64,000 nt of DNA from a virus. Its lineage: Duplodnaviria > Heunggongvirae > Uroviricota > Caudoviricetes. Both the position numbers and the translations under genes were made by a program. The stretch lies in the IMG/VR virus record IMGVR_UViG_3300035210_000190; one strand, written 5' to 3'. Shown here in pieces: positions 2,348 through 61,437 of the stretch; position 1 is the stretch's first letter; each line of letters starts with the position of its first letter. Under the pieces are notes generated by a model. That model ran no database searches. It saw only the letters and a program-made list of their open reading frames with translations, and was not told where the DNA came from.

Positions 2348-3445
2348 ATGATTAACTCACTGCTTACTTTCTTCAAATTCTTGTTGTATAGTGAATCGAA
2401 TTTTTCCGTCAAAAAACTTTATTTAAACAATTATTTTGTATGTGCTAAGAATGGTCTAAACGCCGAAATTAGCATTACTGATCGCGTCATGTTCGTTAAA
2501 GCGTGGTCTACTGTTGATTATGTGGCTTTCTATTATTGCACACCTATGCTTTCAACTGATAATTCAGTTGACGATTTTGTGATTACAAACATTCAAAATT
2601 CCATTATGTTCGCCTTGCCTAAAAAACAATTGATTGAATATTTTGATAGTCATTCTTTATTTTTCAATCGGTTTAGCACCCGTGAATTTCCTGTTATTTT
2701 TGTAGGCGTTAGTTCATCAAATAAATCTGATGATACATACACTTATGATTTCATTCGGTTAAATAGTGTACGCTATCCAATTATTTATTTTACCAAGAAA
2801 AAAATCATTAGAAATGTATTCAAGTATCAATTGAATGCAATTAACAGAAAAGATAAATCCATTGTTAAAAACATTGCCTATTATGTTGGTGATGTATTAG
2901 TTTACCTTTCAGACATTGATTCTTTTTATAAGAGCAACGTCACAAAGGAATCTGCACAGAAGATGCGTTTTGGCTGGATGTCCGGGGCTTATTCAAATTA
3001 TGTCGATGATCAATCACAACAACCCGTAGTTGGCTTTCAAAACCAACTTTTTGAACATAATGAGATTGGAACCAAGCATCTTAATCTTAACAAAATTCAT
3101 ATGCTTAAAACAAAAAAAGATCAGTTCTGTCTTTTTACTAAAAATAAAAAACAATTACTGTTAAGTTACGTTGAGCTTTTTAATGTTAATGGTCAGACTA
3201 CTGTCAATTTAACGACATTAAGTTATTCAAAAGGCCGAGTGAATAAAAAGATTAAACCTGTTGATTTTGATATTGTAAAACAACATGAAATGGATATCAG
3301 TACAGGCGTGATGATGCATATTGACACATTTAAGTTAACACATCCTTCTGAGAACATTATTAATAGTCTGCATAAATTTGATATATCAACGAAACTACCA
3401 CTTAATCCTGATGACTTATTGATTCTAGATATGTGTCAGGTATGA
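2348..3445 (+). CDS. hypothetical protein, paralog family A (C-terminal MxxPhi tag)
   Basis: Shares YCTP, IYFTKKK and PLNPDDL with 4528..5673 and 5750..6820; ends LDMCQV. Confidence 0.85.
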   Translation: MINSLLTFFKFLLYSESNFSVKKLYLNNYFVCAKNGLNAEISITDRVMFVKAWSTVDYVAFYYCTPMLSTDNSVDDFVITNIQNSIMFALPKKQLIEYFDSHSLFFNRFSTREFPVIFVGVSSSNKSDDTYTYDFIRLNSVRYPIIYFTKKKIIRNVFKYQLNAINRKDKSIVKNIAYYVGDVLVYLSDIDSFYKSNVTKESAQKMRFGWMSGAYSNYVDDQSQQPVVGFQNQLFEHNEIGTKHLNLNKIHMLKTKKDQFCLFTKNKKQLLLSYVELFNVNGQTTVNLTTLSYSKGRVNKKIKPVDFDIVKQHEMDISTGVMMHIDTFKLTHPSENIINSLHKFDISTKLPLNPDDLLILDMCQV

Positions 3446-3516
3446 TAACGGTGTCATTTTGACAACATCATATTTTAAATGGTATAATAGTATTAACAAT
3501 AATAATAATAAAAATT

Positions 3517-4431
3517 ATGAAAAAATCACTATTGCCATTTTTAATGGTTTCTTTACTTCCCACTTTTGTCAATGCAGCCTATCAAGTTCAATATAGTCAA
3601 CAACAGATAAATGGCGAAAATATTAGGTTTGTGAGTCAATCAAAATGGTTAACAACTACCCCCCTTATTTCGGAATGGGGTAATGATGGTGATGTTTTTG
3701 GCTGCTCTGCTTGGTCACCATTACCCAATACTGTGAGCTATGGAACATCATTTCAACAATCAGCCAATGATTGTCAGCAAAAACAAAAAAGAACTATTCA
3801 ACAAAGAGAACAGAATGATACATCACATGCTTATAGAGATGTGGGTGTTGCCACTGTAGAGACAAAAACCTTAACTGGGCAATACGGTTCTCAGTCATCC
3901 GTAGGCACTTTGGTTAAATGGATACCAGCTTCCCCCATTGTTTCTGATTGGGTCAATAGTGGTGCTCCAACAGGATGTGTTAATTGGACACCTGATCCAT
4001 CAACAATTACTACTGGTGTAGTATTTACACAAAATGCTACTGACTGTAATCAGCTACAAACAAGAACAGTTCAGAATAGAGAACAAAATGATGTCACACA
4101 AGAATACAGAAATGTTGGCACACCTACAACAGAAAATAAAACATTAACGAATCAACCACATAGCCGTCAATCTACAGGTACAAAGACACTTGATGAATGT
4201 TCATATGTTTATGGAAGTACAACCGTAATGTCAGCATGGATTGATAATGATGCAAATAAAAACATTGAAATCTGGTGGAAAGGTACTAAAATTATTGCGA
4301 CTACATCTAATGTTACGACTTATACGACAGGTGGATTTAAGTATCAAAGAACGGGTGCTTATATGAGAAGAGATGCTATGAACTCTAGTAACTGGTATCG
4401 TTACTACCAAATATGTAGAAGCCCTATCTAA
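3517..4431 (+). CDS. secreted Cys/Trp repeat protein (adhesin-like)
   Basis: Signal peptide; two ~90 aa repeats (W..GC..W.P.P.T...G..F.Q....DC.Q.Q.RT.Q.REQND). Confidence 0.8.
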   Translation: MKKSLLPFLMVSLLPTFVNAAYQVQYSQQQINGENIRFVSQSKWLTTTPLISEWGNDGDVFGCSAWSPLPNTVSYGTSFQQSANDCQQKQKRTIQQREQNDTSHAYRDVGVATVETKTLTGQYGSQSSVGTLVKWIPASPIVSDWVNSGAPTGCVNWTPDPSTITTGVVFTQNATDCNQLQTRTVQNREQNDVTQEYRNVGTPTTENKTLTNQPHSRQSTGTKTLDECSYVYGSTTVMSAWIDNDANKNIEIWWKGTKIIATTSNVTTYTTGGFKYQRTGAYMRRDAMNSSNWYRYYQICRSPI

Positions 4432-4527
4432 TGTTAGTTAAGATAAAAAGAGATTTTAGGATCTCTTTTTTGTTGCCTAAAATTGGTCTATTTGGTATAA
4501 TCGAACAAATTTTGATGGGTGAAAATT

Positions 4528-5673
4528 ATGTTCTATACAATTCTCAAAGCCTTTGGTTTCGCCATCTACAGCGAAAAAGACTTTTTCATCTCTAAAAAAG
4601 ATGACACTCATTTCAAAGTTATTGCAAAAAGTGGTTTATCAGCGAATGTCGAAATTACTGACAATACTATGTTTGTTGACCTTTTCGATCAATCCAAAGA
4701 GAATGTAGGTTATTATTGTACGCCACGGACTGACGCAGTGCTTTCTGTTGAAAATTTCGTTATTAAAAATATTCAAGACAGCATATTATTTACATTATCT
4801 AAAAAGGATCTTGTGGACTATCTTCGAACCTATAACACGTTGTTTAAAGAGGTTCGCAATATTTATATGCTCGTGAGTTATCTTGAAACTGACAATGCTG
4901 ATCTGCATTCAAAACGACTTAATAATGGTTATTTGTATAAGCATACTGAACATAATAAAGTTCATTATTCACATGTTTATTTCACAAAGAAAAAAGTTAT
5001 CAAAAACATAGTGCGATATAGTTTTCATATGACATCATTGCAGTCATTTGATAAGCATGAAGCCTCTCACGCCTATCTCATTGGTGACACTTTTTTTGAT
5101 GTGTGTAATATGGAGCAATTTATTAAATCAACGGCTGACGCTTCATTGGCTCATTATAGTTTTGATTCGACACACATTTCATATGGTATTAACAATCAAT
5201 TGAATGACCATTACCAGACTTACAAAGCGAATATTGATTTGAACAAAGTGGCAATCCTTAAACGTAAAAATAAAGACTATTGTTTGATGACAAAAAATAA
5301 AAGAAAAATTACATTACGTTATCTCACTGATTTTAATGTTAGGTATGCAGTGCTTGAAAAAGATCCGAGCTACAGCTCTGAGCGTGCGGAATTTAAAGGC
5401 AACGAAGTTCCAGTGTATAGGTATAAAGATAAAAAAATGATCACCTATACTTATTTCAATGGTCAACTACAATCAACCTCTAAAAGTTTTTCAGTTGATG
5501 AAGCTATTGAGCATGAGATTTCCATTAGCAATAGGTTAATGAATAATTTAGATTCGCTACGATTAAAATATCCATCTGACCAACTTATTCGTAAACTTCA
5601 AGATTTGGGGTTATCTTACGAAGCACCTTTAAATCCAGATGATCTATGTGTTTTGGCTATGATTGATATTTAG
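4528..5673 (+). CDS. hypothetical protein, paralog family A
   Basis: Paralog motifs; ends LAMIDI. Confidence 0.85.
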   Translation: MFYTILKAFGFAIYSEKDFFISKKDDTHFKVIAKSGLSANVEITDNTMFVDLFDQSKENVGYYCTPRTDAVLSVENFVIKNIQDSILFTLSKKDLVDYLRTYNTLFKEVRNIYMLVSYLETDNADLHSKRLNNGYLYKHTEHNKVHYSHVYFTKKKVIKNIVRYSFHMTSLQSFDKHEASHAYLIGDTFFDVCNMEQFIKSTADASLAHYSFDSTHISYGINNQLNDHYQTYKANIDLNKVAILKRKNKDYCLMTKNKRKITLRYLTDFNVRYAVLEKDPSYSSERAEFKGNEVPVYRYKDKKMITYTYFNGQLQSTSKSFSVDEAIEHEISISNRLMNNLDSLRLKYPSDQLIRKLQDLGLSYEAPLNPDDLCVLAMIDI

Positions 5674-5695
5674 ACCACCTTTGGGTGGTTTTTTA
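5672..5695 (+). terminator. intrinsic terminator
   Basis: accacc-tttg-ggtggt plus T-run; near-identical copy at ~6821-6840. Confidence 0.75.
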
Positions 5696-5749
5696 TTGCC
5701 TAATTCGGCTGACTTTGCTATACTTATGAAAATTTAATGGGACTTTATA

Positions 5750-6820
5750 ATGTTCACTAAAATACTAGAAATGTTGAAGCCGACTGTCTATAAAGATAAA
5801 TATTTTATTATCAAGAAAGATGATGAATTTTCTTATTCAATTAAAGCTACAAATGGACTTTATGGCACTATTAGTGTTTCGAATAACATTATGTTTGTTG
5901 ATATTTTTGTAGAACCAAAGCAATTTTTGACAAGATATTCAACTTCATTGACTGATGCCACAGTGTCCCTTGAAGATGCCATGATTTTGCATATTGGGAA
6001 CAATATTCTTTTTAAAGTAAAAGAAGGCTATGTTGATTCAATTATTCGGAACAATTATTCTTTTTTTAGGAATGTTCTAATTTCTGAACATATTTTTTCA
6101 CCTGAGTTATGGTCTGGTTCTCGCTTTGAAAAGTTTTACTACCCACATATAGTTTTTTCGAAAAAGAAAGTGGTAAAAAGTATTTACAGATACAGCTTCA
6201 AAGCTGTAAATTTGAAGGATCTTGATACATCTATTTCTCAATATTACATGATTGGTGAATATTTTTTTGCTATTTCTAATTTAAAAAACTATCTTGATCT
6301 GGTTATTGATAGTTCAAAGTTTGGTGCTCTAGTTTCATTAGGGATTGACAATCAATTAACTGAGGAAATTCCACTTTATAAAAAATATTTAAATACCTCT
6401 AATGTGTTGATGTTGAGCCGAAGCAGTGTCAGCTATTGCCATATCAAAAGAGAACGTAGAAAACTGATGATAGTCTATTTTGATAATTTTCATGATCGAT
6501 CAGCAGAACGCAAAGTAGATTCGTCATTCATTAAATTTATAAACATTTTAAAGTATGGCAAACAGTTTTATAGAATTAGCCGTATGGTGTCAGTCACTTG
6601 GCATAAAGGCAAAGTAACAACAAAGCAATCTTTATTTGATCAAGTTCTTGCAAAAAAACATGAAAAAGATGTTAGCAATATGGTGAAAGATGAATTTGAT
6701 GTTTTGCAACTCAAACACCCATCAAAAACCATCTTAAACACTCTTTCTGAACTTGGCTTGCCGGATTCTTTGCCTTTGTCTCGTGAAACCCTTACAGTAG
6801 TGGATATGTATCAGATTTAA
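5750..6820 (+). CDS. hypothetical protein, paralog family A
   Basis: Paralog motifs; ends VDMYQI. Confidence 0.85.
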   Translation: MFTKILEMLKPTVYKDKYFIIKKDDEFSYSIKATNGLYGTISVSNNIMFVDIFVEPKQFLTRYSTSLTDATVSLEDAMILHIGNNILFKVKEGYVDSIIRNNYSFFRNVLISEHIFSPELWSGSRFEKFYYPHIVFSKKKVVKSIYRYSFKAVNLKDLDTSISQYYMIGEYFFAISNLKNYLDLVIDSSKFGALVSLGIDNQLTEEIPLYKKYLNTSNVLMLSRSSVSYCHIKRERRKLMIVYFDNFHDRSAERKVDSSFIKFINILKYGKQFYRISRMVSVTWHKGKVTTKQSLFDQVLAKKHEKDVSNMVKDEFDVLQLKHPSKTILNTLSELGLPDSLPLSRETLTVVDMYQI

Positions 6821-6897
6821 GACCACCTTCGGGTGGTTTTCTCATTGCCGTTGTTTGCTTAATATGATATAATACATGTCTTAACAGACAGCTTATT

Positions 6898-7326
6898 ATG
6901 AGGCATTCCATGATCCGTCTTGCCACTGAACATGATTTAACGGACATTAAACGTATCGCCAACCAGAACAGAGAGTTTATTGGCTTTGTGATGAAAGTTG
7001 CGTTGATGGAAGCTATTCAGAAAAAGTCTCTTTTTGTATTTGAAGATCTGTCTGGTGTGGTTGGTTTTGTTCACTACCATCCCCGTAAAGATGGCTGGCA
7101 TACTGTCCATGAGCTTGCTGTTGCGAAAAATCTTCATTCCAAAGGTGTCGGACAACAATTGTTTGATAGTGTCCCATTGCCTATTAGATTGAAAACCACC
7201 GAAGACAATGTAAAAGCATTACGTTTCTATGCTAAGAATGGCATGACCATTGTCGGTATAGAAAACGGAAAGAAGAGAAAGTTGACTGTTTTAGAAAAAT
7301 ACACTGGAGAAATTAAACATGAGTGA
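6898..7326 (+). CDS. GNAT family N-acetyltransferase
   Basis: IRLATEHDL start; LAVAKNLHSKGVGQQL acetyl-CoA motif; NVKALRFYAKNGM. Confidence 0.85.
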   Translation: MRHSMIRLATEHDLTDIKRIANQNREFIGFVMKVALMEAIQKKSLFVFEDLSGVVGFVHYHPRKDGWHTVHELAVAKNLHSKGVGQQLFDSVPLPIRLKTTEDNVKALRFYAKNGMTIVGIENGKKRKLTVLEKYTGEIKHE

Positions 7327-7531
7327 TATTCCTGATTTTGTTGTAGCTTGTTTATCTGAACTGGCTGATGACCAAATTGTTTACAAAACAACCGAAGCTC
7401 AATATACCAAACAGCAGTTGATGCAAGAAGTTGCACAAAAAACCACTGTTGGTAAGATTTATTGTTCCGAACTGTTTCGTGTTGCCCGTGACCTTATTGT
7501 CAGAAAGAAAGCAAAAGAAAACGTTGAATAA
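7319..7531 (+). CDS. hypothetical protein
   Basis: ggag RBS, coupled to upstream gene. Confidence 0.7.
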   Translation: MSDIPDFVVACLSELADDQIVYKTTEAQYTKQQLMQEVAQKTTVGKIYCSELFRVARDLIVRKKAKENVE

Positions 7532-7557
7532 CAAAACAACATATAGGAGAATTAACT

Positions 7558-7872
7558 ATGTTACTTTTTCATGGCACCAGTGCCACCAACCTTTCTGATA
7601 TTTTGTCTTCTGGCGTTAATGCTGAATCTTATTGGGGCACTTTGGAACAAGCTCGTAGTTTTTCGAACAGTTTTGATGATGGCATTATTCTTCAAGCTGA
7701 CATTGATGAAAATGATCTCAGAGCCAGTATTTTGATGGCTGAAAGTCTCTATGATTCAGGTGATCTTGATGAAATCCCTGATGAAGATGATATTGATTTT
7801 TCTATTGAGAATTTAGGCGGTTGTGTCTGTTTGATTGCCATTAATGACTTCTCAGTGGTTGTTCAAGAGTGA
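7558..7872 (+). CDS. small acidic protein, possible ADP-ribosyltransferase-like fold
   Basis: LFHGTS...I...G N-terminus typical of ART/Tpt1-like phage proteins. Confidence 0.5.
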   Translation: MLLFHGTSATNLSDILSSGVNAESYWGTLEQARSFSNSFDDGIILQADIDENDLRASILMAESLYDSGDLDEIPDEDDIDFSIENLGGCVCLIAINDFSVVVQE

Positions 7873-7918
7873 TGGTTGTGGTATAATCCTTCAACTTAAG
7901 TAAACAAAGGTATTTCTT

Positions 7919-8233
7919 ATGTCTTCTCGTGCGGCTTCTGATGTTATTCGTGGCAATAACAATATTATTCGAGCTTCTATTTTGATGCTGAAACTCGACC
8001 CTAAGTATCGGATGACGACTGCCATGATCGATTCTATTATCAGTGTTTTGCAAACTGCCGAGAATACTTTTAAGGAAGAACCCAGTATTGATCTGGTAGG
8101 GGCTTACGCTGAAACTGTTGATTTGGTGTCTCAGGTGTTGATTCGGCATGAAATGCACCATATGGCTCAAATGATTGTCGATAACAGTGAAATCATTAAA
8201 AAAGAAGGCTTGAAATCACTATTTAGTGCTTAA
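7919..8233 (+). CDS. hypothetical protein
   Basis: Promoter TGGTATAAT and RBS aagg. Confidence 0.7.
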   Translation: MSSRAASDVIRGNNNIIRASILMLKLDPKYRMTTAMIDSIISVLQTAENTFKEEPSIDLVGAYAETVDLVSQVLIRHEMHHMAQMIVDNSEIIKKEGLKSLFSA

Positions 8234-8288
8234 CTTCCAGCCATTTTATGCTATAATACACCTATCAAACACACACAGGAACGAATAG

Positions 8289-8723
8289 ATGAAAACTCCA
8301 ATTGACGCCCCACGCAGCAAAGTGATGGTTGGTTTGAACATTATTGGTGCTTGGCATCATCATATTGACATGTTCATCACAGGTCAGGCGGATCTTGAAC
8401 TTCGTTGTGCATTGTTCCACAGCCGCGAACAACGGGCACCCGAATATGAAGAAGAGCTTCAAACCCCAGAAGTAGATGCAGATTTGGAACGCTTGAAATC
8501 TCAAATCAAAGCCTACGCAGTTGAAGCCATTAACCGTGGGATTGAAGCTGAAAAACGTCAACTAAAATCAAACGTTGAAAAATCGTTTGTCGGCATGAAC
8601 CAAAAAGACCCAGCAGGTAGTGTGAAAGAGTTGGCTGCTCATTATGGTGTGACCATCAGCGAATATCGTAAGCTGAAACGTGAAGGTCGTTTGGATGAAC
8701 TGAAAAAACCTGTCACTGAATAA
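8289..8723 (+). CDS. hypothetical protein with possible C-terminal HTH
   Basis: SVKELAAHYGVTISEYRKLK. Confidence 0.7.
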   Translation: MKTPIDAPRSKVMVGLNIIGAWHHHIDMFITGQADLELRCALFHSREQRAPEYEEELQTPEVDADLERLKSQIKAYAVEAINRGIEAEKRQLKSNVEKSFVGMNQKDPAGSVKELAAHYGVTISEYRKLKREGRLDELKKPVTE

Positions 8724-8791
8724 TCTTCTTTTCTCTAATCAAAAAAACCAAGGACATCGAAATCCTTGGTTTTTCTACTTGAGTTTCTTGA

Positions 8792-9376
8792 TTATTCGTT
8801 ATATTTATATTTTTCAATATAATTGAATGAGAAATTTTGATCGTCCGCTTCTTTGGCTCGTTGAATTTCTTCTTTGATGTTTTCAATGAACTCACCAAAT
8901 GTTGGTTTTTGAAAGGCCAACTCTTCTTCATCCGACCAGATAACAAAAACGCCCTTTCCGTCTTCTCTTAAATCCATGACCACATAAGCATCATTGTCAG
9001 ATAGCAATGGAATGATGTGGTTACAATCTTCTTCTGATAATAAATCTGGTCTTTCTTCTATTATTTGAAAATTTATAATGTCAAAGTCTTTGGCGAGTGA
9101 AATATCTTCTAATTGAAACCATTCACCATCTACAACCTGCAGACCATCATACGCCTTAAAAAACTCAACAAAATCATCTGGTAGTTTATATCCAATCCTT
9201 TCTTCCAGTAACTTTATTCTGTTTTCAAAGATGAAATAATATTCAATGTCCAAATCAGGATTTTTTTGGAATTCTTCTAAAATGAACATTTTATATTCAT
9301 GCGAAACTATTATTCCAAGATCACGTCCTCTAGCTTCTAGATTTCTTAAAAAGGTGAAGTCTTCATTACTGGTCAT
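8792..9376 (-). CDS. SMI1/KNR4 (SUKH) family protein
   Basis: IKLLEERIGYKLPDDFVEFFKAYDG, YVVMDL, TFGEFIE; start at RBS gggag. Confidence 0.8.
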   Translation of the reverse strand: MTSNEDFTFLRNLEARGRDLGIIVSHEYKMFILEEFQKNPDLDIEYYFIFENRIKLLEERIGYKLPDDFVEFFKAYDGLQVVDGEWFQLEDISLAKDFDIINFQIIEERPDLLSEEDCNHIIPLLSDNDAYVVMDLREDGKGVFVIWSDEEELAFQKPTFGEFIENIKEEIQRAKEADDQNFSFNYIEKYKYNE

Positions 9377-9569
9377 ATGCACACTCCCATTAATTCTTTT
9401 AATTGCTTGCTTTATCATATCATAGATCTCTAATAATACAATGTCATCTATCATTTCAGCGTTTTTGTGTCAACCTTATTTACCTTAAAACATTTATAAA
9501 AAATAGAAAAATATTGACTTTTTTGTTGATTTATTCTATAATATATGATCGATAAAAACAGGAGATAAT

Positions 9570-9953
9570 ATGCTACCATACCGAAATAAACGAATTGTTT
9601 CTCTTTCAGATTGGGATAGTTTAGTGATAGAAACTTACGGAAAACCTTATTCTTTTCAGCAACAGGATGGTTGTCAATCAAGAGGTAGTTTCAAAATTAG
9701 TATACCAGATGGTGCTGATGATTACGAGAATGATACTGTTCCAGAAGAAGTCAATGGCGATGAAATGGGCGTTAGTTTTAAAGCATGGTTAGAGCGTCAT
9801 CCCAAAGAATGGAATGGCAATGAAGAAGATAAACGTTTTCTTAATATGTATTGGGAACGAAATTTTTATCCGAATATACAAATGATTGCCAATGATTTAC
9901 ATGAAAAAGGTTTGATTGAAGCCGGTGATTACGTCATTGAAATTGATTGGTAA
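9570..9953 (+). CDS. hypothetical protein, tandem paralog
   Basis: Highly similar to 9969..10346 (WD.LVIETYGKPY.FQQQDGC, WERNFYP, IDW*). Confidence 0.85.
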   Translation: MLPYRNKRIVSLSDWDSLVIETYGKPYSFQQQDGCQSRGSFKISIPDGADDYENDTVPEEVNGDEMGVSFKAWLERHPKEWNGNEEDKRFLNMYWERNFYPNIQMIANDLHEKGLIEAGDYVIEIDW

Positions 9954-9968
9954 CAATAGGAGTTAATT

Positions 9969-10346
9969 ATGTCAGCGGAACCAAAATACATTACCCTAGA
10001 AGAATGGGATGATTTAGTCATAGAAACTTATGGCAAACCGTATGCTTTCCAGCAACAGGATGGTTGTAAGTCAAGAGGAAAATGTAGGCTTCGAATCCCT
10101 TCACATGCTGAAGATTACGAAAATACCGCTATTCCTGAGAGGATTAATGGTTATGGGATGGGTGTTAGTTTTTCATCATGGTTAGATCGTCATCCGAAAG
10201 AATGGAATGGCAATGAGGAAAAAAAATATTTAATTGATATGTTTTGGGAGCGAAATTTTTACCCACATGTACAAATGCTTGCTAATGATTTACATGAGAA
10301 AGGATTGCTTGAAGCAGGTCAATATGTGATTGTAATTGATTGGTGA
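9969..10346 (+). CDS. hypothetical protein, tandem paralog
   Basis: Paralog of 9570..9953. Confidence 0.85.
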   Translation: MSAEPKYITLEEWDDLVIETYGKPYAFQQQDGCKSRGKCRLRIPSHAEDYENTAIPERINGYGMGVSFSSWLDRHPKEWNGNEEKKYLIDMFWERNFYPHVQMLANDLHEKGLLEAGQYVIVIDW

Positions 10347-10427
10347 TTTAAAATTGATATTTTTTTATAAAGCTTAATTTCGATTAAGCTTTTTTGTTTT
10401 TATCATGGAAAATGTTGAAAAAATAGC

Positions 10428-10456
10428 TTGACGGTACTGATGGTTTTCTTTATAAT
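10428..10456 (+). promoter_or_regulatory. strong sigma70-like promoter for the tRNA cluster
   Basis: TTGACG-17 nt-TATAAT. Confidence 0.75.
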
Positions 10457-10631
10457 TCTCACATCAAGACGAAACGGAGAAACACAATCTTGCAACAATG
10501 AACCAGCACTTCTTGCCAGTGGCTACTGTTAGGGTAAAGGTTTCGGCCTCCTGATATAACTTGTGAGTATGGATAACTACTCGGTGCGGATACAAATAGA
10601 GTAGGCCAATATGATATTATGCAACACCCAT

Positions 10632-10708
10632 GTCTGCGTAGCTCAGTTGGATAGAGCATCCGCCTTCTAAGCGGATGGTCGTTGGTTCGAATCCAACCGT
10701 AGACACCA
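10632..10708 (+). tRNA. tRNA-Arg(UCU)
   Basis: Cloverleaf; anticodon arm tccgc-ctTCTaa-gcgga; GGTTCGAATCC; encoded CCA. Confidence 0.95.
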
Positions 10709-10736
10709 ACTTTTCAAACAACATCCTCGGTGAACT

Positions 10737-11141: not shown

Positions 11142-11147
11142 TACAAT

Positions 11148-11231: not shown

Positions 11232-11264
11232 ACTTTAAAAAACTTTATTATTGGAGATTGTATT

Positions 11265-11600: not shown

Positions 11601-11615
11601 TTGGTAGGAGTCATT

Positions 11616-12301: not shown

Positions 12302-13036
12302 ATGTCTACTTATATAACATTAGCCAACCGATTGGTTACATTAATCAAGTCTTATGAAGACCCAGAGATTTCAAACGTGGCATTACATGTGGATCAGGTT
12401 CGTGGAAGCGGATGTAACGGTAGTATTTATATCAGGAATCGCAATTTTGAACGTAGCCACCAGCTTTTTGTATGTTCGAAGCCAATAAGCAGTGACTATT
12501 TGTTTTCATTGCGATCTTCGGCTGGTCTATATACCATATTCCGATTATTGGCTCAACCAGAAACGTTTAGTCCAAGCAATGATGATGAGGAATTTATTTC
12601 CAACCTTGTCTGGTTTAAGGTTATGATTCGCACTATCAAAGATCAGATCGGTCAAAATCTCTTTCATGAGTTGACGTATTCTATCCTAATTGATATGTCT
12701 ATTACAATGAAAGATAACAATGGCATTATTAAGTTTAATTTTTCAAAACATTCAAATGTTTTAAATAAAAACGTTCATTATAATATTTCTTTTGATCTTT
12801 CTTTTAATTTCATTGAAGTTAATTTTGATTCTAAAACTTATGTAGATAATTATCAGAAAGAAACGCTTGTTAAATTTAAATCAGAAAACCAATTGGCGGC
12901 TTTTTATACATTATTTTCTTACTATTGCCATCCATCAGTTCATCAAAGTCTTGATACTGTTATGAACGTAGCTATTGATTTGAACGATGATAATTTGCAC
13001 GCTTATGAACATATGGTCAACATGATAAAGATCTGA
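12302..13036 (+). CDS. hypothetical protein (C-terminal MxxPhi tag)
   Basis: Own promoter; ends VNMIKI. Confidence 0.8.
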   Translation: MSTYITLANRLVTLIKSYEDPEISNVALHVDQVRGSGCNGSIYIRNRNFERSHQLFVCSKPISSDYLFSLRSSAGLYTIFRLLAQPETFSPSNDDEEFISNLVWFKVMIRTIKDQIGQNLFHELTYSILIDMSITMKDNNGIIKFNFSKHSNVLNKNVHYNISFDLSFNFIEVNFDSKTYVDNYQKETLVKFKSENQLAAFYTLFSYYCHPSVHQSLDTVMNVAIDLNDDNLHAYEHMVNMIKI

Positions 13037-13038
13037 CT

Positions 13039-13879: not shown

Positions 13880-14794
13880 ATGCCCATTATTTCGCTGGAA
13901 GAACTGAAGACAAAACCTGTGCCAATCACTTACGGCAAAGTTTTCAGCTATTCTTATTTTTTTGAAAACAAAACAATTACCATTGATATTGTCAATGAGC
14001 ATGAGTTCATGATTAATTTCATTTTTGAGGACGAAAAAGGTAAACGCAAATACAGTTATCTTGATAAGTCTTTTGCTAAAAGTGATTATTTGGAATCTTT
14101 TAAAAAGGGTAATTATCCGAAAAAACACTTTAATATCGATCATGGGTATATTCTTTATAACTGTATTTTTTCTTATCTTGATGAAGCAAGTCTGATCAAT
14201 GTTTTGGATGATTTTGGTTATTATTCAGAAGTCCCTTGCTCTAATGAGTATCAAAAAGCAGTTTTTGTCGATAATATATATTTTTTTGCAGCTTCAACTC
14301 ATAGGGATTCAAAGGAACGAAAATTCTCTATTTCAACTAAAACACATAATAATAGCACTTTTTATGATGATCAGTTAAGAATTGATTATATTGTCTCAGA
14401 AGACACAGTATATAAAACGATTGTCAAGACAGAAGAATCCTTATTTCCTTCAATTTTTAATCTTTTGCATTATTCTGAAAGGCTTAATTTTCATTGTGAT
14501 GTCAATATTTTTAATGATGACTTTACCTATTGTTTTTGGCCTAGTCATGAGTTTATCATGGTTAAATATTGTTCTGGTGAACTTAATATCAATAGCAAAA
14601 CTCGATTTTGTGAAGGTAATAAAACCAGAGATTATGATGAAATACAAAGAATTTTGACAATTTTGGTTTTTTACATGGTAAAAGATAAGCCAACTTCAGA
14701 GTTTAAGGCACTGTTCAAAGATATGTATGGTGATAATAAAATTAGTGACATGACAATAGATGAATTTAAATGCCTTGAAATGTATCAAATTTAA
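13880..14794 (+). CDS. hypothetical protein (C-terminal MxxPhi tag)
   Basis: 304 aa; ends LEMYQI. Confidence 0.8.
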   Translation: MPIISLEELKTKPVPITYGKVFSYSYFFENKTITIDIVNEHEFMINFIFEDEKGKRKYSYLDKSFAKSDYLESFKKGNYPKKHFNIDHGYILYNCIFSYLDEASLINVLDDFGYYSEVPCSNEYQKAVFVDNIYFFAASTHRDSKERKFSISTKTHNNSTFYDDQLRIDYIVSEDTVYKTIVKTEESLFPSIFNLLHYSERLNFHCDVNIFNDDFTYCFWPSHEFIMVKYCSGELNINSKTRFCEGNKTRDYDEIQRILTILVFYMVKDKPTSEFKALFKDMYGDNKISDMTIDEFKCLEMYQI

Positions 14795-15975: not shown

Positions 15976-15977
15976 TC

Positions 15978-20162: not shown

Positions 20163-20283
20163 TATTCAAACAGAATGTGAACCTCGAGAGAGGTTTTTTT
20201 TTCGTCTACAATTTATGTTATTTTTCCTATTTTGTGTTATACTGGCATATCGAATATTGGGCCAACCTAATCAGGAGTCTTAC

Positions 20284-21069
20284 ATGGGATTTTCATCATT
20301 TTCCAATAAGGAGCTAGAAAAATTTAATAAATATCTCGCTAATTCTTTGCTGACTAAGCAGATTACCCAAGTAGAAAAGGATCGATATTGTGAATTCTTA
20401 GCTATTCGAGAAGCTGAATTTAAGTCATGGATGTTGCCAGCATTGGTTCCTTATTTTAAAGAAACTCCGTTAGAGTTAAATATACTGTATATGGATGATA
20501 ATAATTTTCGATTCATTATTGTTTTTAGAGTGCCCAAAAAAGTCAAGACACTAGAAGCTCGCTTTAACATTCAGACGGATTCGATTGATTTCAGTCTTAA
20601 TAAGTCCAATGTTACTTTATTGCATTTTGAAAATGATTATCAGTCTTTGCTGGATGCAGTTAATCGTGTGACTAGCGACTATCGGCTTTGTTCAGAATTT
20701 AATTTAGGTAATCGTGCGGCTACCATGAGCAGTCTTGAAAAGTTCTTGAGGCAAACAACCTTCGTCAGTTTTCCTCATTTCAATAAAAGCGAAAAGCCTA
20801 CTTCGATTATGGAAACACGTTTAGATTTAAAATCAGGGGCTTCTTTAACGCTGCAGACAATTTATAATCATAAAACAAAAGAATCAGATATCTCACTTTC
20901 ATATAGTCGTCATAAGAAACGTAGTTTTCACATTGATATTGCTGTGAGGTTGAAAACTTCACTTTACGAAACATTTGAGAATCTTGCTTTTAAACTGTAT
21001 TTTAAAAGTTTGTATGATGTATCAAATACACCAAGGAATATTGATTTTGTTAAAATGGTTCGTTTCTAA
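20284..21069 (+). CDS. hypothetical protein (C-terminal MxxPhi tag)
   Basis: aggag RBS; ends VKMVRF. Confidence 0.8.
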   Translation: MGFSSFSNKELEKFNKYLANSLLTKQITQVEKDRYCEFLAIREAEFKSWMLPALVPYFKETPLELNILYMDDNNFRFIIVFRVPKKVKTLEARFNIQTDSIDFSLNKSNVTLLHFENDYQSLLDAVNRVTSDYRLCSEFNLGNRAATMSSLEKFLRQTTFVSFPHFNKSEKPTSIMETRLDLKSGASLTLQTIYNHKTKESDISLSYSRHKKRSFHIDIAVRLKTSLYETFENLAFKLYFKSLYDVSNTPRNIDFVKMVRF

Positions 21070-52274: not shown

Positions 52275-53060
52275 ATGATAATGACTGACACTCAAAACAT
52301 GATGGTGACTTTGATCGAAAAGTTCTTGGATGAACATTTTCCGAATGACCCACGCAGTATTCGTCCAGTTGGTAGTGAATTTGCCGTAGACGTGGGTGTA
52401 GAACGCAATTTTAAATTGTCTTTTCGTCTGTTAAGTAACAGTGTCTACAATGTTGTTATTCATGAAGATCATTTTGACGCCATTGCTCCCCTTTTTGGTT
52501 TGAATGAATTTCAGCCGGAATCGACAAACATTCTCAATGACTTTATCCAAAGTCTCAATAAAAATGAAGCCTTCAAGCAAGTATTTAAACCTGTTCCGAT
52601 GGTTGACTTCAGTAAACATATGACGACTTATTCTAAGTTTGAAGACAGCTACAAAGACATTTATGATGCTGACGAAAGGGTTTCATTGATTACGAAAACA
52701 GGTAGCGTTAAACGCCAAGGTGTTGCTCAGTTTGCTTTTCGGTTCACCAAAACCAATAGACTGAAATGTTTGCCTGCTATTGCCTTGTTTTATGGCGAAG
52801 TGGCTTATTATCGAATCGGTGTGGGTTTTGACCTCGATAATCAAACCGTTCATAGCATTACTGAGACTGTTGATACCTATGAGGACTTTTTTGTTAGTAA
52901 CAAAGCGTTCAATTTTGAAACTGAAATCAATGCGTTTGTTGTTAACTTTTTGAATGACTGGATTACATGTTTTCATAAAGATCGCCCCGAAGAGTCATTT
53001 ATTTCAGATGATATGTCGTTTAAAGACAAATTGGAACTTTTTAAAATGAGTGCGATTTAA
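52275..53060 (+). CDS. hypothetical protein, paralog family C (MxxPhi tag)
   Basis: Paralog of 53962..54735 (KFLD.HFPND, DFSK, AQF..RFT); ends FKMSAI. Confidence 0.85.
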   Translation: MIMTDTQNMMVTLIEKFLDEHFPNDPRSIRPVGSEFAVDVGVERNFKLSFRLLSNSVYNVVIHEDHFDAIAPLFGLNEFQPESTNILNDFIQSLNKNEAFKQVFKPVPMVDFSKHMTTYSKFEDSYKDIYDADERVSLITKTGSVKRQGVAQFAFRFTKTNRLKCLPAIALFYGEVAYYRIGVGFDLDNQTVHSITETVDTYEDFFVSNKAFNFETEINAFVVNFLNDWITCFHKDRPEESFISDDMSFKDKLELFKMSAI

Positions 53061-53961: not shown

Positions 53962-54735
53962 ATGACAGATGTCAATAATCAAATGGTTGAGCTAGTCCAC
54001 AAGTTTTTGGATAAGCATTTTCCAAATGACACACATAGAGTGAGTGAAGGTGGCTCAACAATTTTTGTGTCTGTTGGTGATGATGACATGAAATTGTTTT
54101 TCAATATCTGTGACAACAGTATTTACAGTGTGTCCATCCACAACGATCATCTAGAAGATATTTGTCCACTTTTTGGATTAGACACTTATTACACTGAAGC
54201 TGCTCTTGTTTTGAACACCTTTATAGATGCAGTAAATGATAATAAACTGTTCAACGAAGTCTTTCATCCTATCCAACCGATGGATTTTAGCAAATACTTC
54301 ACTAAATCTTTTTCTGATGATTTTATGGATTTTTATGACGCGGATACCCGTTTCAATCTTATGTCGAAAGTAGGCAGCAAAGAGTATCCCTGTATTGCTC
54401 AGTTTTCCTATCGTTTCACAGAAGACAATACATTGAAACCGATTGCGGCTATTTCTTTGTTGAACAATACAGAAAGCGATTTTCGTGTAGGTTTTAACCT
54501 TGATGAGCAAAGTATTCATCTTATTACAGAAAGAGTTAATATTTATGAAGGTTTTTTCATTGAAAATAAGATTTTCAATGTGAATGAAGACATTGATAAT
54601 TTTGTTCACAAGTTTGTAGATAATGTAATTACAAAATTCCATGAAGTCCAGTCAGACGCTACGTCTCCATTTCATGCAGATGATGTAGATTTTGTTGATA
54701 AACTTCCAATTTTCGAAATGATCCATATTCAATAA
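53962..54735 (+). CDS. hypothetical protein, paralog family C (MxxPhi tag)
   Basis: Ends FEMIHIQ. Confidence 0.85.
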   Translation: MTDVNNQMVELVHKFLDKHFPNDTHRVSEGGSTIFVSVGDDDMKLFFNICDNSIYSVSIHNDHLEDICPLFGLDTYYTEAALVLNTFIDAVNDNKLFNEVFHPIQPMDFSKYFTKSFSDDFMDFYDADTRFNLMSKVGSKEYPCIAQFSYRFTEDNTLKPIAAISLLNNTESDFRVGFNLDEQSIHLITERVNIYEGFFIENKIFNVNEDIDNFVHKFVDNVITKFHEVQSDATSPFHADDVDFVDKLPIFEMIHIQ

Positions 54736-57095: not shown

Positions 57096-57716
57096 TCATT
57101 TTGGTGTATGTCTTCTAGGTTTTATGAGACGTTCAGCCATTGTTATTTCATTTTCTAACGGTTCTTTGTACTCTTCTAACAGTCTTTTGACATAGGTTTC
57201 TGTTTTTTGTTTAAGTTCGTCATCGACATTTTTTGATGTTTCCCATAAGTCTCTCATTTCTGCAAATTCCATATAGTCAGAGACGTGTCTATATTCTACT
57301 GGGACACCAGCAGCGTTCAAGTCCATTACTAATTTCTTTTCAAACTGAGAGTACGTTTCAAGATCCTGTAATGGGCCTTTGTTAAAGCTGTCTAAATATT
57401 CACGCCTTAATGCAGTAATACCTTTGTATATGTTTGTACTGATGGTTGCCATTGCAAGAGAAGCAACACCTGCTATATGTAAGGTTTCTGCACTTACTTT
57501 GTAGATCTCATAGTTGTTTGAAATCGCCATGCCAATTGTGACTAATCCAACGCTACCACTTAAAACTCCAAATCCGATATGCAGTTTAGTTCTATCTTTT
57601 ATTTTCTTTTTTAATGTTTCAACCGATCTTTTTTCATCGTGCAAGTTTTTAAAATAACCTAACACATCTTTGTAAAGGTTTTCGCTTATCTTTTCTTTGA
57701 ATAAATTATTTTCCAT
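57096..57716 (-). CDS. 2-TM protein, tandem paralog with basic tail
   Basis: Paralog of 57738..58346 (MEN..LF.E.IS..LYK, FEK.LV.DL, EF..MRD). Confidence 0.8.
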   Translation of the reverse strand: MENNLFKEKISENLYKDVLGYFKNLHDEKRSVETLKKKIKDRTKLHIGFGVLSGSVGLVTIGMAISNNYEIYKVSAETLHIAGVASLAMATISTNIYKGITALRREYLDSFNKGPLQDLETYSQFEKKLVMDLNAAGVPVEYRHVSDYMEFAEMRDLWETSKNVDDELKQKTETYVKRLLEEYKEPLENEITMAERLIKPRRHTPK

Positions 57717-57737: not shown

Positions 57738-58346
57738 TTAAGGTGTGTTCTTTTTTATTTTTTTAACCACTTCTGGTTTGGTGTATTCTTCCATTATTGA
57801 TTTAACAAACTCTGTTGTTTTTGCTTTAAGTTCATTATCATAATCTGGATTTTTAACATCCATATCACGCATTTTAACAAATTCTTCGGATGTCATAATA
57901 TTTTTATGTTTGACATCAATACCTATATTTCTTAAATCAGACACTAATGTTTTTTCAAAACCAATATACATTACAACATCATTCATATTATTTCTATAAC
58001 TAGCATCATAATAGTCACTATCTAGTTTGCCCACTTTATTGTTTAAACGAAGTGATAATGTTATTGCTGCCATCGAAGCTATTCCACCACATAGCATAGT
58101 GTTAACAGCTACTCTGTAGATATCTGGACTATTTGTGTAGTAATTGACAGCAATAGTTGCTATTGTTCCCAATGTTAAACCGATACTTGTGAAAGCGGAT
58201 GCTTTAGATAATTTGTCTATAGTATTCATTTTATCTTTAATCTTGTCAGAGCTTATTTTTTGATCATGGATTTCCTTGGCAAAATTTATAATATTTTTAT
58301 ACAATTTGTCACTTATAGCTTCTTGGAATAATTTAGTGTTTTCCAT
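57738..58346 (-). CDS. 2-TM protein, tandem paralog with basic tail
   Basis: Paralog of 57096..57716; ends KKIKKNTP. Confidence 0.8.
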   Translation of the reverse strand: MENTKLFQEAISDKLYKNIINFAKEIHDQKISSDKIKDKMNTIDKLSKASAFTSIGLTLGTIATIAVNYYTNSPDIYRVAVNTMLCGGIASMAAITLSLRLNNKVGKLDSDYYDASYRNNMNDVVMYIGFEKTLVSDLRNIGIDVKHKNIMTSEEFVKMRDMDVKNPDYDNELKAKTTEFVKSIMEEYTKPEVVKKIKKNTP

Positions 58347-58420: not shown

Positions 58421-60283
58421 TGAACTACCCCGCCCTGAAGGACGAAGTTTCTTGGGTGTTTGAAACCTTTCCCAATCGCTGACGTTCATTGTCAACTTCA
58501 AACAAAGCTGTCAGCTTCATTCGCACGGTTTCTCTTTTCATTTTGGACGGGCAATACTGCCCATCTTTCAACAGGTGAAAAGTGAACCGAAGAACTTCTT
58601 CGGTTATTCTGTTCCTTACATTTTTTGCTGCATTCTGATCAGCGTCTTCTTTATGACCACATGCATTACAATGAAAACTTCTTCCTTGTCTTACAGTGTG
58701 TTCCACACACTGACACTTTGAACAGGTTTTCGATGTATAGCTTGGCGTGGTCAAATGCACTCGAATGCCTTTATTGTTCGCTTGCTCTTGAAACCAATCT
58801 TTAATGCTCGACAATCTTAACAATCGAATAAGCTTTGAATATTTTATATTTAATGTTTCATCTTTGATGAAAGAGGCTTTACATTGTGAAAGATTGAGAT
58901 CTTCTAATACAATATCGGTTATTCCATCATCTATTAAGTTTTTTAAAGTCTTAGATATAAGTTCTTTAAAATGGAATTCTACACCGCCTAATAGCTTATT
59001 AAATTGAGCTTGTTCGTGTTGCGTTAATTGTTTAAACCCTTTCTTCTCAAAAGATTGTAGAGACTCTACAACCTTTTGAACATACTCACGATTATAATCA
59101 ATGGCTATTTCTCGATCATGAAAAGCAATGGTACAGAAGTTTGAAGCAACGTTTATATCAATGCCACATACAGCTTTTTTATCAATGATGCTGTCTTTTT
59201 CAAGAGGTTTAAAATATTCTGTTTCATCTTCATAAGTTAAACCAATTTCAATACGATTTTTTCGATTTAGTCGAACTGTATGAATCGCTTCAAGGTTAAA
59301 ATCATTAATGTCATTGTGATATTTAGGATTAAAGGCCAAAGGAACATGAATATGTTCCTTCCCAATCCTAAAATTATACCAATATTTGTACTCATTTGTT
59401 TCATCAACATGAATATAAGAATGTTTAGTTTGTCCGATTCTAGGTATTTTCATGTAAGACCCAGTAGAAAACACAATCGGTGATTTCATGGATTTTAACA
59501 TTCTCATTTGTTTTCGAAGCAACAGTGCTTTAACTCTGTCCCAAAGAAAAACTTCGACACCTTCGGTAGTATAATGTCTTTTATCTCTTAATGCATTAAG
59601 CCTTGCGTTAAAGTCTTCAATGTCTTGAATTTTTTTGGGATTATTTTCACCTTCTTTATGAGCTTTTAAAACAGAATCAAGCATTGAATGATCAACATAG
59701 ATTAACCAATTCATCAAATTGGTTAATGACGTATTTTTATGAATGACTTCTATTTTTTTTACATCACCTTTAGATGCGATAGTATTTCCCAACTTACCTG
59801 TTACTTTTCGTTTGTATTTAGTCACTTTATACTCTTTTTGAAGAACAAACTTTTGATTATCAGTAAGCTTATCGACCCAATTTGAATAAAAATCTACAAC
59901 TTGTTGGTATATTTTTTGAACTTCCCAAGAATATAATTCGGAACAATTGAATTGTTTCGCATGGGAAATAAGTGTATGTTTAGAAGTCGAAGAAAGAAGT
60001 GAAAGTTTATGTTCAAAGATATATTGAGAAATTTCGTTTTTAAGGGATTTAACAAAAGCAAAATGCTCAACAAAACGATCTGTCTTCTTCGAATTAATAA
60101 TTGAAGAAGCAGAAATGCGTTTAGCTTTAATTTTTTGTTTGCCTGAGCTACCGTAAGCCATTAGTTTTCCTATAAAAAGTCTTGCTAAATTATACAATGT
60201 ATTCGATAACAAAGCAAGCTAAAAAGTAAAGAAAACAAAAAAGAAAGAAAATACTTATCCCCCACCTGAAGGAAGGGGTTTTG
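58421..60283 (-). mobile_element. non-autonomous IS200/IS605-family element (tnpB only, IS1341-like)
   Basis: Subterminal hairpins on the minus strand: LE aaaccccttccttcaggtggggga (~60257-60282), RE aaacttcgtccttcagggcggggtagttca (to 58421); no tnpA; boundaries approximate. Confidence 0.75.
58425..60161 (-). CDS. tnpB: RNA-guided endonuclease TnpB (large, ~578 aa)
   Basis: RuvC I GIDIN, RuvC II VLEDL, YTSKTCSKC...CNACGH zinc ribbon, RuvC III ADQNAAKN. Confidence 0.9.
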   Translation of the reverse strand: MAYGSSGKQKIKAKRISASSIINSKKTDRFVEHFAFVKSLKNEISQYIFEHKLSLLSSTSKHTLISHAKQFNCSELYSWEVQKIYQQVVDFYSNWVDKLTDNQKFVLQKEYKVTKYKRKVTGKLGNTIASKGDVKKIEVIHKNTSLTNLMNWLIYVDHSMLDSVLKAHKEGENNPKKIQDIEDFNARLNALRDKRHYTTEGVEVFLWDRVKALLLRKQMRMLKSMKSPIVFSTGSYMKIPRIGQTKHSYIHVDETNEYKYWYNFRIGKEHIHVPLAFNPKYHNDINDFNLEAIHTVRLNRKNRIEIGLTYEDETEYFKPLEKDSIIDKKAVCGIDINVASNFCTIAFHDREIAIDYNREYVQKVVESLQSFEKKGFKQLTQHEQAQFNKLLGGVEFHFKELISKTLKNLIDDGITDIVLEDLNLSQCKASFIKDETLNIKYSKLIRLLRLSSIKDWFQEQANNKGIRVHLTTPSYTSKTCSKCQCVEHTVRQGRSFHCNACGHKEDADQNAAKNVRNRITEEVLRFTFHLLKDGQYCPSKMKRETVRMKLTALFEVDNERQRLGKVSNTQETSSFRAG

Positions 60284-60371
60284 TATTTTTTAGATTGATT
60301 TCTATATGATAAAATTGACTTTTTATTCAAATATAGTAATATTAACTTATTAACCAATGTATTAAATTATT

Positions 60372-60794
60372 ATGAACTTTAAACAAAAATCATTATTTCT
60401 ATTACTTATTATTCCTTTTACATCTTTTGCAGGATACTCAGTTAACATGCCATTAGAAAATGGTATTGGTGGAAATGGTGGAAACTTACCAAGCAACAGT
60501 ATTATTTTTTCAGATACTAATGGTGGGCCATCTATTCCGCCACCGAATCCAAATGATCCGAATAACCCAACAGACCCTAATGAAGATCCTAGAATGCAAG
60601 CTTGTCGTGACAAAGAACCACAAGTAATTGCCATAATAAATAATTATGGAACTCTTTTCCGTGAACTTCGTCCATATCATGATGAAGAAGAAAATATTGT
60701 TTATTGTACGGCGGATTATGATATCCCTGATGATCCACAACGTGATATGATTATTCAAGATTTGCTTAATATTGGTGTTGGCACAGCAATGTAA
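60372..60794 (+). CDS. secreted protein with Pro/Asn-rich linker
   Basis: Signal peptide; YSVNMPLE..GG.L..I.F; PPPNPNDP linker; Cys pair. Confidence 0.75.
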   Translation: MNFKQKSLFLLLIIPFTSFAGYSVNMPLENGIGGNGGNLPSNSIIFSDTNGGPSIPPPNPNDPNNPTDPNEDPRMQACRDKEPQVIAIINNYGTLFRELRPYHDEEENIVYCTADYDIPDDPQRDMIIQDLLNIGVGTAM

Positions 60795-60894
60795 TTATTT
60801 GTTTTATTAAAAAGGGGCTTCGGCCTCTTTTTTGTTTACACCAATCTTTAAATTTGGTACAATAGCTAACTGATTACTACAAAGGTGGTGCGAT

Positions 60895-61437
60895 TTGACA
60901 CGACAAGAACATTTAACTTTTTTCCTAAGACTTCATATTCTAGGTAGTCTTGTCGATGGTTATCATACAATTGACCTGACAGGTCTTTACGTTGATTTGA
61001 TAAAGCTTTATGCTCTTTTACTTGAAAATGATTTTGATTTTGACATTGAAACAGTGACTTATGAAGAACTTATTATGTTTGAAAACAACTTATCAAAAAA
61101 AGTAGTGAAGCCATTACATAAACGTTCAGTTGTAGGTTTATTGATTTGGCTTAAAAAGATCTATGCCTTTAATCATACAGTTGAATCGGTCTATAAAGGA
61201 AAGGCAGTCATCTTTTCTAATGCTGATAACTCTTTAATTGTAAACCATAACAACATTTCAGCGACATTTGTTATTGATGGTAACTTGTTACGTTATATTT
61301 CTTATAGTGTTGATGAAGAAGACTATGAAGTAAAAGAAACTATTCTCTTTAAACTTTCCACATTTGATCGTTTTCTTGCAAATATTGATGAGTATTATGC
61401 TTGTCAAAAATCTATTTTAGAAATGGCCCTCTATTGA
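60895..61437 (+). CDS. hypothetical protein (C-terminal MxxPhi tag)
   Basis: aaggtgg RBS before TTG; ends LEMALY. Confidence 0.75.
   Translation: MTRQEHLTFFLRLHILGSLVDGYHTIDLTGLYVDLIKLYALLLENDFDFDIETVTYEELIMFENNLSKKVVKPLHKRSVVGLLIWLKKIYAFNHTVESVYKGKAVIFSNADNSLIVNHNNISATFVIDGNLLRYISYSVDEEDYEVKETILFKLSTFDRFLANIDEYYACQKSILEMALY

Follow-up and report, generated by a model that had tools for sequence, protein, structure and literature searches.

What does a short C-terminal pattern do when it recurs on proteins that look otherwise unrelated? The question is raised by a stretch of 64,000 nucleotides, filed as virus record IMGVR_UViG_3300035210_000190 and called the window below, which judging from gene content is likely part of a megaplasmid-like element of Gammaproteobacteria. 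An earlier note, made from the letters of the window alone, had pointed to nine plus-strand open reading frames (ORFs) whose products end in a common pattern, with methionine at the fourth position from the end (Met(-4)) and hydrophobic residues at -1 and -6, and had proposed a portable peptide read by one receptor. All nine ORFs are present on the plus strand, with final residues exactly as quoted there (Table 1). The motif is real and far beyond chance, and about a fifth of the proteins in the sampled stretches carry it. No part of the carriers is better conserved than the tail, which keeps a constant register to the free C-terminus. The reading that we favour, at a probability of roughly one in three, is that the carriers are a library of cytoplasmic adaptors that would plug the Met(-4) helix into one hub, most plausibly an element-encoded protease-unfoldase of the Clp or FtsH type.

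Enrichment and definition of the motif

In the window, Met(-4) is found in 10 of 102 curated genes (2.5 expected), and 8 of the 102 combine it with hydrophobic residues at -1 and -6 (0.31 expected). The pattern as first described thus holds in these eight genes, but not in 53962, which has one extra residue and Met at -5; the same shift recurs in its homologue P0159. Since the pattern had been defined on window genes, an independent test was sought in relatives. A profile of a multicopy marker family identifies at least 24 loci in viral contigs (30 of 64 parts scanned). Five records were read nearly whole, namely G001 (84.6 kb), G002 (181 kb), G003 (437 kb), G004 (191 of 193 kb) and G005 (286 of 290 kb), and G006 was sampled as five 20-kb pieces. 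G001 repeats the window from 49610 onward and is therefore not independent of it, whereas G002-G005 are four independent related elements.

Among the ORFs of at least 100 amino acids (aa) in G002-G005, 247 of 1,284 have Met(-4), against about 30 expected. The excess is present in each element: 45 of 183 ORFs in G002 (4.4 expected, binomial p 1e-31), 102 of 495 in G003 (11.3, p 4e-64), 58 of 247 in G004 (6.2, p 3e-38) and 42 of 359 in G005 (7.6, p 7e-19). It is an excess at a single position, as the remaining positions from -1 to -10 hold only 1-16 Met each, near background. In the controls, the counts are 2 of 104 for G006, 0 of 145 for distant loci (L009-L025) and 13 of 680 for cellular loci.

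The 263 Met(-4) proteins of G001-G005 define a motif of 13 residues, in which the information is concentrated; the signals of Dot/Icm type lie in the last 20-50 residues. The profile has I (52%) or Y (12%) at -1, E/K/D (66%) at -5, L/I/V/F (63%) at -6, L/V/I (84%) at -7, L/I/F (60%) at -9, D (29%; D or E 41%) at -11, and L/T/F at -13. The hydrophobic positions -1 and -6 emphasised in the earlier note do hold, but the strongest position after Met is -7, followed by -1, -9 and -6. The region upstream is mildly acidic, with a mean net charge of -1.8 over -25 to -5, compared with -0.2 in the bodies. Filtering by position -7 and by -6 or -9 keeps 230 of the 263 proteins, and together with the nine window proteins these form the set of 239 carriers.

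A matrix derived from 136 families of other elements was used to score the window tails, with 4,981 internal Met windows as background. Of the nine tails, six are strong (15.4-18.9), and at most 0.02% of the internal windows score as high. The tail of 20215 is moderate (0.4% as high); those of 60895 and 12302 score low (2.9% and 6.8%) and are counted as weak. The 12302 homologue in G005 has Met at -5. At 4528 and 20284 lie in-frame ATGs within ORFs that mechanical calling begins at 4519 and 20215, and promoter-like words just upstream favour these later starts. The product of a further gene, at 49610-50311 (+), is homologous to a tail-bearing family (E 5e-12) but no longer has the Met tail, and is a natural tail-less control.

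The promoters assigned to the carriers are real but not distinctive: in G001, 8 of 13 tail genes and 48 of 91 others have the word TA[TC]AAT upstream, and in G002-G005 this word shows no excess before carriers. A carrier-specific promoter was rejected, as the top-ranking words (p about 2e-5, out of thousands examined) differ between elements and partly reflect upstream tails.

Register, codon usage and conservation of the tail

The tail is tied to its register. Among 1,388 proteins, 175 pass the matrix at the training register (offset 0), 8 at offset +1 and 1 at +3, with none at +2 or at +4 to +7. Internal windows pass in only about 4 of 189,942 cases. Synonymous codons are near background, with p at least 0.03 at 8 of 10 tested sites, a lowest p of 0.007 and no fixed codon. 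The stop codons and downstream bases of the carriers are ordinary, and a Shine-Dalgarno word before an internal ATG is found in only 1 of 230 carriers. The constraint therefore lies on the protein. A cause at the DNA level, such as a recombination site or a mini-gene, is rejected by the codon and flank analysis.

Family C illustrates the degree of conservation. Its profile has only 40 matches among 1.84 billion representatives, and in an alignment of 46 rows with a mean column identity of 23%, Met(-4) is present in 41 rows, and 2 full-length rows have it one position away. The four best-conserved columns include Met, Lys(-10) and Ile(-1), and only that of Met is nearly invariant. Together with the terminal register and the free choice of codons, this bears out the idea of a protein-level signal tied to the free carboxyl end. 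Close strain variants of three window proteins point in the same direction: they depart from the window copy at 393 of 8,900 positions in the body (3.4-5.4%), but at only 2 of 403 in the tail and at 0 of the 155 key ones, in rows that are related and do not represent independent events.

Carrier bodies and the origin of the tail

Once the last 30 residues are removed, BLAST groups the 239 bodies into 148-167 clusters. None of 145 family representatives matches Pfam at E 0.001, compared with 109 of 248 large non-carriers, which are longer proteins, at E 1e-5. The nine window proteins likewise match neither Pfam nor PHROG, in agreement with the earlier statement that they lack a recognisable domain, and their grouping into family A (three members), family C (two members) and four singletons is also confirmed. 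Carrier lengths are narrowly distributed (interquartile range 216-285 aa, compared with 140-257 aa for other proteins), and among proteins of 200-300 aa, as many as 176 of 454 have Met(-4). By a crude hydrophobicity rule, signal-like N-termini are found in 6 of 230 carriers and 143 of 1,158 others. The carriers diverge fast, with a median best identity between elements of 30.6% (39.5% for other proteins), and more of them have paralogues (90 of 223, versus 145 of 777). They stand in tandem arrays of about a dozen genes (examples in Table 1).

In contrast to the motif itself, the proposed portability between unrelated proteins finds no support. Homologues of carriers have, almost without exception, retained the tail or changed it by one step; among 17 non-strict homologues, most have such a one-step variant and a few point to false members of the set. 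The mean likeness of unrelated tails, out of 15, is 3.04 within an element and 3.06 between elements, and this comparison reveals no recent tail swapping. Element-specific flavours of the tail are not evident either. The tail is never found on a recognisable enzyme. Its carriers share not only their length but also a layout, as 143 representatives have strand periodicity from -104 to -56 and helix periodicity from -46 to -26 (p 2e-9 compared with other proteins, 3e-9 compared with shuffled bodies). Iterated profiles of the truncated bodies join clusters, mostly to other carriers, with family C linked to clusters 3, 5 and 97. For a single paralogue family with a buried tail helix, which would refute the earlier note, the evidence is mixed, with several results against it: the profiles of families A and C match with a probability of only 0.2%, only 1 of 91 pairs of tail families reaches 50% (221 of 405 planned pairs run), and a profile of -110 to -31 performs no better on real than on reversed sequence (area under the curve, AUC, 0.49-0.55). 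Inheritance with the families, the shared layout and the few profile links indicate that the carriers are one architectural class, partly homologous, with the last helix as the most constant part.

Predicted structures suggest that the tail is helical and that it ends a sheet-helix-loop-helix layout. The model of family C (52275), with a predicted local distance difference test score (pLDDT) of 93.3, contains a helix, a four-strand meander, helices, a second sheet, a helix (212-233), a loop and the tail helix (247-258). The model of family A (5750, pLDDT 80.9) contains three strand-meander units, three helices (298-334), a loop and the tail helix (345-355). Both thus end in helix, loop and tail helix, at pLDDT 82-92. 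For family C, Foldseek gives no match at E 0.001 in the PDB or BFVD, a sequence search of the PDB gives a best E of only 0.026, and a wide fold search gives a best Z of 5.4 (root-mean-square deviation, rmsd, 6.0, 70 residues aligned) among tied generic rows. A BFVD row for family A (E 7e-4) is not credible, with a TM score of 0.12 and an rmsd of 27.6.

Possible partner of the tail and alternative explanations

The spacing of the conserved residues suggests a helix with two faces, one formed by -1, -4 and -7 and the other by -6, -9 and -13. The latter may pack on the preceding helix of the same protein, and the Met face, together with the free carboxyl group, may fit a single pocket of a partner. 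We infer such a pocket because packing alone can hardly explain why Met is preferred so strictly over Leu and Ile, or why its distance to the chain end is fixed. A single common partner for all tails is probable; that this partner is a protease is, taken on its own, doubtful.

Variable, fast-diverging, sheet-rich bodies with a constant plug would have the layout of an adaptor library. Precedents for such tethering are the tail of SspB, which docks on ClpX, and the logic of F-box proteins. Each variable body would bind its own target, perhaps a phage, rival-plasmid or host defence protein. Candidates for the hub are at hand: the related fragments encode a ClpA/B-type ATPase, a Band 7 protein and several peptidases, and pMEGA megaplasmids encode ClpP, three FtsH proteins and HflK/C, according to the available text of their description (10.1101/2025.09.30.679422). 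Several observations weigh against the adaptor library. Elements of this type commonly carry proteases, whose presence does not bear on binding. In the fragments read, no gene is consistently tied to the carriers, and none of the 37 shared non-carrier families is an obvious hub. The confident folding of the tail in both models would also fit a structural role. Moreover, the region from -50 to -17 carries an order-dependent signal (AUC 0.65-0.71 compared with shuffled sequence), which makes the tail part of a longer module.

It is possible, at odds well short of even, that the tail is instead the translocation signal of a Dot/Icm-type (type IVB) secretion system of the element. The carriers would then be effectors for recipient or neighbour cells, read by a coupling complex or an adaptor. 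The tail is short, C-terminal, mildly acidic upstream and hydrophobic at its end, and its carriers lack signal peptides. Dot/Icm effectors number in the hundreds, and the available text of a review describes C-terminal signals for them that include an acidic E-block and adaptor-bound motifs (PMC10025392). DotB is encoded by all 20 pMEGAs (supplement Table S9 of 10.1101/2025.09.30.679422, in the part available), with which the element shares the unusual PTH2 and the PilS/shufflon genes. However, the same review text gives the signals no consensus (PMC10025392), whereas the tail is strict in register. Of the E-block the carriers show mild acidity only, and none passes the basic-tail rule. No carrier has an enzyme domain; the ART-PolyVal, DEDDh, GNAT and PNKP proteins of the elements, which are the kind of enzyme usual among transferred cargo, end in lysine-rich tails, the other described type of signal, and this class is only modestly above the generic bias (4.4-fold, versus 3.4-fold in cellular loci). 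A DotB-type ATPase (PF00437) gives no match over the cut-off in five incomplete fragments. These fragments are accessory regions that each cover at most a quarter of a replicon, with the replication and transfer core outside them.

Rather unlikely is the explanation that all carriers descend from one superfamily, or from a few, of great age and extreme divergence, with the tail as the last helix of a shared C-terminal domain that serves folding or self-assembly. The narrow length range, the strand and helix periodicity before the tail, the merging of clusters by iterated profiles and the inheritance of tails with families speak for it. The failure of families A and C to match, the single linked pair and the upstream profile that does not exceed its reversed control speak against it. 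Furthermore, Leu or Ile should serve a buried helix as well as Met, and its distance from the chain end would not have to be fixed.

Two further possibilities are much less probable. C-terminal degrons are well established, and the non-polar free C-terminus of the carriers might direct them to a protease that reads C-termini, such as FtsH, Prc or Lon, and give them the short lives of antitoxins or sensors. Degrons known to us are short, unstructured and tolerant, and a 13-residue helix with two hydrophobic faces, kept at strain level and predicted to be folded, makes this very unlikely. About as improbable, or slightly more so, is docking on the sliding clamp, RNA polymerase or a similar hub of replication or transcription. 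Clamp motifs known to us lack a Met(-4) helix. Unrelated T4 proteins (gp43, gp55, gp33) do share short hydrophobic-acidic C-terminal epitopes, but in the text available these occur on three nucleic-acid proteins, not on hundreds of orphans (PMC2988020). The DNA-binding domain of MotA appears as a weak fold row for family C (Z 5.0, rmsd 3.9, 86 residues aligned), tied with unrelated rows, and no beta-clamp domain (PF02767) is found in five fragments. Finally, packaging into the virion of a giant phage, another option of the earlier note, is hardly credible: related fragments are filed as virus records, and tRNAs and RNA ligases are phage-like, but the element looks like a megaplasmid, with close homologues on contigs of 1.84-1.92 Mb, with a chemoreceptor, efflux pumps and tRNA synthetases, and without terminase, portal or capsid genes in the fragments searched.

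If the adaptor reading is extended to the whole replicon, one gene in five of a 1.9-Mb plasmid, by extrapolation several hundred, would belong to a diversifying recognition library that plugs via the Met helix into one machine, and so destroys or disarms chosen phage, rival-plasmid or host proteins. This extension is unlikely; if true, it would be a prokaryotic counterpart of F-box or immune-receptor repertoires, and the 13-residue plug might be reused to make targeting in bacteria programmable. The genes of megabase plasmids are for the most part unexplained, and the motif groups a fifth of them, about 150 sequence families, into a single functional class, so that the question reduces to what binds one 13-residue peptide. 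Should the partner be a protease or another hub, the receptor-library system would be of a sort for which no bacterial example is described. A coupling complex as the reader would provide the first strict signal and hundreds of substrates for a plasmid Dot/Icm system. Even a purely structural tail would mark a very large new protein class. A literature search found no description of the motif, with most subscription papers outside its reach.

The element and its other genes

The window has a GC content of 30-38% and is crowded with short orphan genes, mostly on one strand, with few Pfam or PHROG matches among the 95 proteins scanned. Members of the 90% clusters of window proteins are present on contigs of 834,842, 1,851,360 and 1,917,244 bases, and a further window gene has relatives on contigs of 1,843,594 and 1,859,102 bases. 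Seven sequencing runs besides the possible source each contain at least half of the words sampled; they are without exception peat metagenomes from a single year, maybe from one campaign, and there are no RNA runs among the listed runs that contain window words.

The large non-carrier proteins of the related fragments include tRNA synthetases, a chemoreceptor, efflux pumps, DnaK, TnpB and RNA ligases. The fragments also encode PilS and shufflon proteins, many DEDDh nucleases, a ClpA/B-type ATPase, and Band 7, S49, M48, M3 and M17 proteins, the last four being peptidases. PTH2 is present in the window, G002 and G005. The sole hint at the host is SCP2, with best matches in species genomes in Pseudomonas (59% identical). 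Terminase (PF03237) is absent from all five related fragments, which are incomplete, and portal and capsid families are absent from their 106 large unannotated proteins as well as from the large annotated ones. A domain of 100-200 aa from a 'virion structural protein' family occurs in four of the 106, at least one of them with a signal-like N-terminus.

Searches for wider relatives gave little. Two query proteins have no relatives in 50,697 phage records, and 72,556 plasmids contain none apart from a distant MYG1 at about 30%. The profile of family A2 has no relatives in species genomes, scans of viral contigs with single proteins gave no match, and atlas look-alikes score under 0.9 or are absent. 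Locus L096 was rejected as a cellular home of the element, being a chromosome-like locus of 61% GC without the A2 family. G002-G005 are filed as virus records, two of them rated 96-98% complete, and look like pieces of megabase plasmid-like elements; such records are a likely source of mislabelled 'huge phage' entries.

Several other genes deserve mention (Table 1). Lysine-rich tails are found on 75 of 710 proteins of at least 200 aa (17 expected) in G003 and others, never together with a Met tail; 12 of 22 scanned basic-tailed proteins of G003 match Pfam, and the ART-PolyVal, DEDDh, GNAT and PNKP proteins belong to this class. The excess is modest, since cellular loci are also biased. A family of about 620 aa reaches six copies in G003 and is a good marker of this element group. 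The protein encoded at 3517-4431 belongs to a family with 17 members across five elements, one of which matches a domain of the PHROG 'virion structural protein'; they are possibly surface adhesins.

Table 1. Features of the window and two carrier arrays of related elements. For carriers, the residues at the end of the protein, the codons of the tail helix and the matrix score are given.
Position	Strand	Feature	Details
2348..3445	+	Family A carrier	365 aa; LLILDMCQV; tail helix 3404-3442; score 16.8
4519..5673	+	Family A carrier	384 aa, likely start 4528; LCVLAMIDI; tail 5632-5670; score 16.6
5750..6820	+	Family A carrier	356 aa; LTVVDMYQI; tail 6779-6817; score 18.3
12302..13036	+	Singleton carrier, weak tail	244 aa; EHMVNMIKI; tail 12995-13033; score 2.9
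13880..14794	+	Singleton carrier, strongest tail	304 aa; FKCLEMYQI; tail 14753-14791; score 18.9
20215..21069	+	Singleton carrier, moderate tail	284 aa, likely start 20284; IDFVKMVRF; tail 21028-21066; score 10.0
52275..53060	+	Family C carrier	261 aa, likely start 52281; LELFKMSAI; tail 53019-53057; score 16.0
53962..54735	+	Family C carrier	257 aa; LPIFEMIHIQ; tail 54691-54732; score 15.4 at offset 1
60895..61437	+	Singleton carrier, weak tail	180 aa; KSILEMALY; tail 61396-61434; score 5.5
L063 (G004) 383-9847		Tandem array	about twelve tail genes, broken by one non-carrier gene
L089 (G002) 8613-14381		Tandem array	about seven tail genes
36726-38627, 45247-46509, 57096-57716, 57738-58346	-	Lysine-rich-tailed proteins	
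36726-38627 (-), 62558-64000 (+)		Multicopy family, about 620 aa	no Pfam match; conserved GKK and WCI motifs
3517-4431	+	Signal-peptide protein with internal repeat	within family A cluster
42393-43349	+	DEDDh-type exonuclease family	16 members, nine in G003
19232-19852	+	Perfect three-residue peptide repeat	many copies
45247-46509 (-), 48098-49447 (-)		Perfect five-residue peptide repeat in two paralogues	three copies and about eight, respectively
8792-9454 (-), 23487-23900 (+)		Orphan immunity-type genes	SMI1/KNR4; Immunity protein 22; no adjacent toxin
58425-60212	-	Unusually long TnpB/Cas12f-like protein	595 aa; relative in G005
198-665, 17094-17507, 29918-30820, 44537-45190		tRNA/RNA repair cargo	PTH2, 2H-like protein, MYG1 exonuclease, RNA ligase
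10632, 11148, 12145, 19992		tRNAs	four, two of them Leu(TAA)

Comparison with known systems

As an element, the closest counterpart is provided by the pMEGA megaplasmids of Enterobacteriaceae (10.1101/2025.09.30.679422, PMC12633466). According to the available text, they share the megabase size, the low GC content and the predominance of genes without known function, as well as many tRNAs and synthetases, TnpB, shufflon and pilin genes, PTH2 (in all 20 pMEGAs), efflux pumps and tandem multicopy families. They differ in base composition, with 26% GC for pMEGA4 and 31-35% GC for the relatives studied here, which reach 1.84-1.92 Mb, and in their hosts, which are Enterobacteriaceae, whereas the hint here is at Pseudomonas. 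Further marks of the pMEGA type are a Dot/Icm-type system, a MOB-F relaxase, Rep proteins and a lack of phage structural genes. The large multicopy class of the pMEGAs is alpha-solenoid, whereas the carriers are predicted to be alpha/beta. The word 'C-terminal' is absent from the main text of the paper (PMC12633466).

As a signal, the tail resembles those of Dot/Icm substrates (PMC10025392), which are also short and C-terminal, mark a large share of the proteome, and have an acidic upstream region and a hydrophobic end. As far as the available text of the review goes, those signals have no consensus; the tail described here, known from sequence alone, is a strict helix with an invariant Met, and its carriers include no enzyme cargo. 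The C-terminal epitopes of T4 gp43, gp55 and gp33 (PMC2988020) are alike in placing a hydrophobic-acidic extreme C-terminus on unrelated proteins that address a single hub. In the available description, these are three nucleic-acid proteins with flexible linkers and interchangeable tails, in contrast to hundreds of orphans with a helix and no tail exchange. DNA polymerase or transcription factors as in T4 were not found among the carriers, as none of the 145 representatives and none of the nine window proteins matches Pfam.

In logic, the nearest systems are the adaptors of AAA+ proteases with a C-terminal tether and receptors of the F-box type, which combine a variable recognition body with a constant docking piece. 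Bacterial protease adaptors are, to our knowledge, few per genome, in contrast to the carriers described here.

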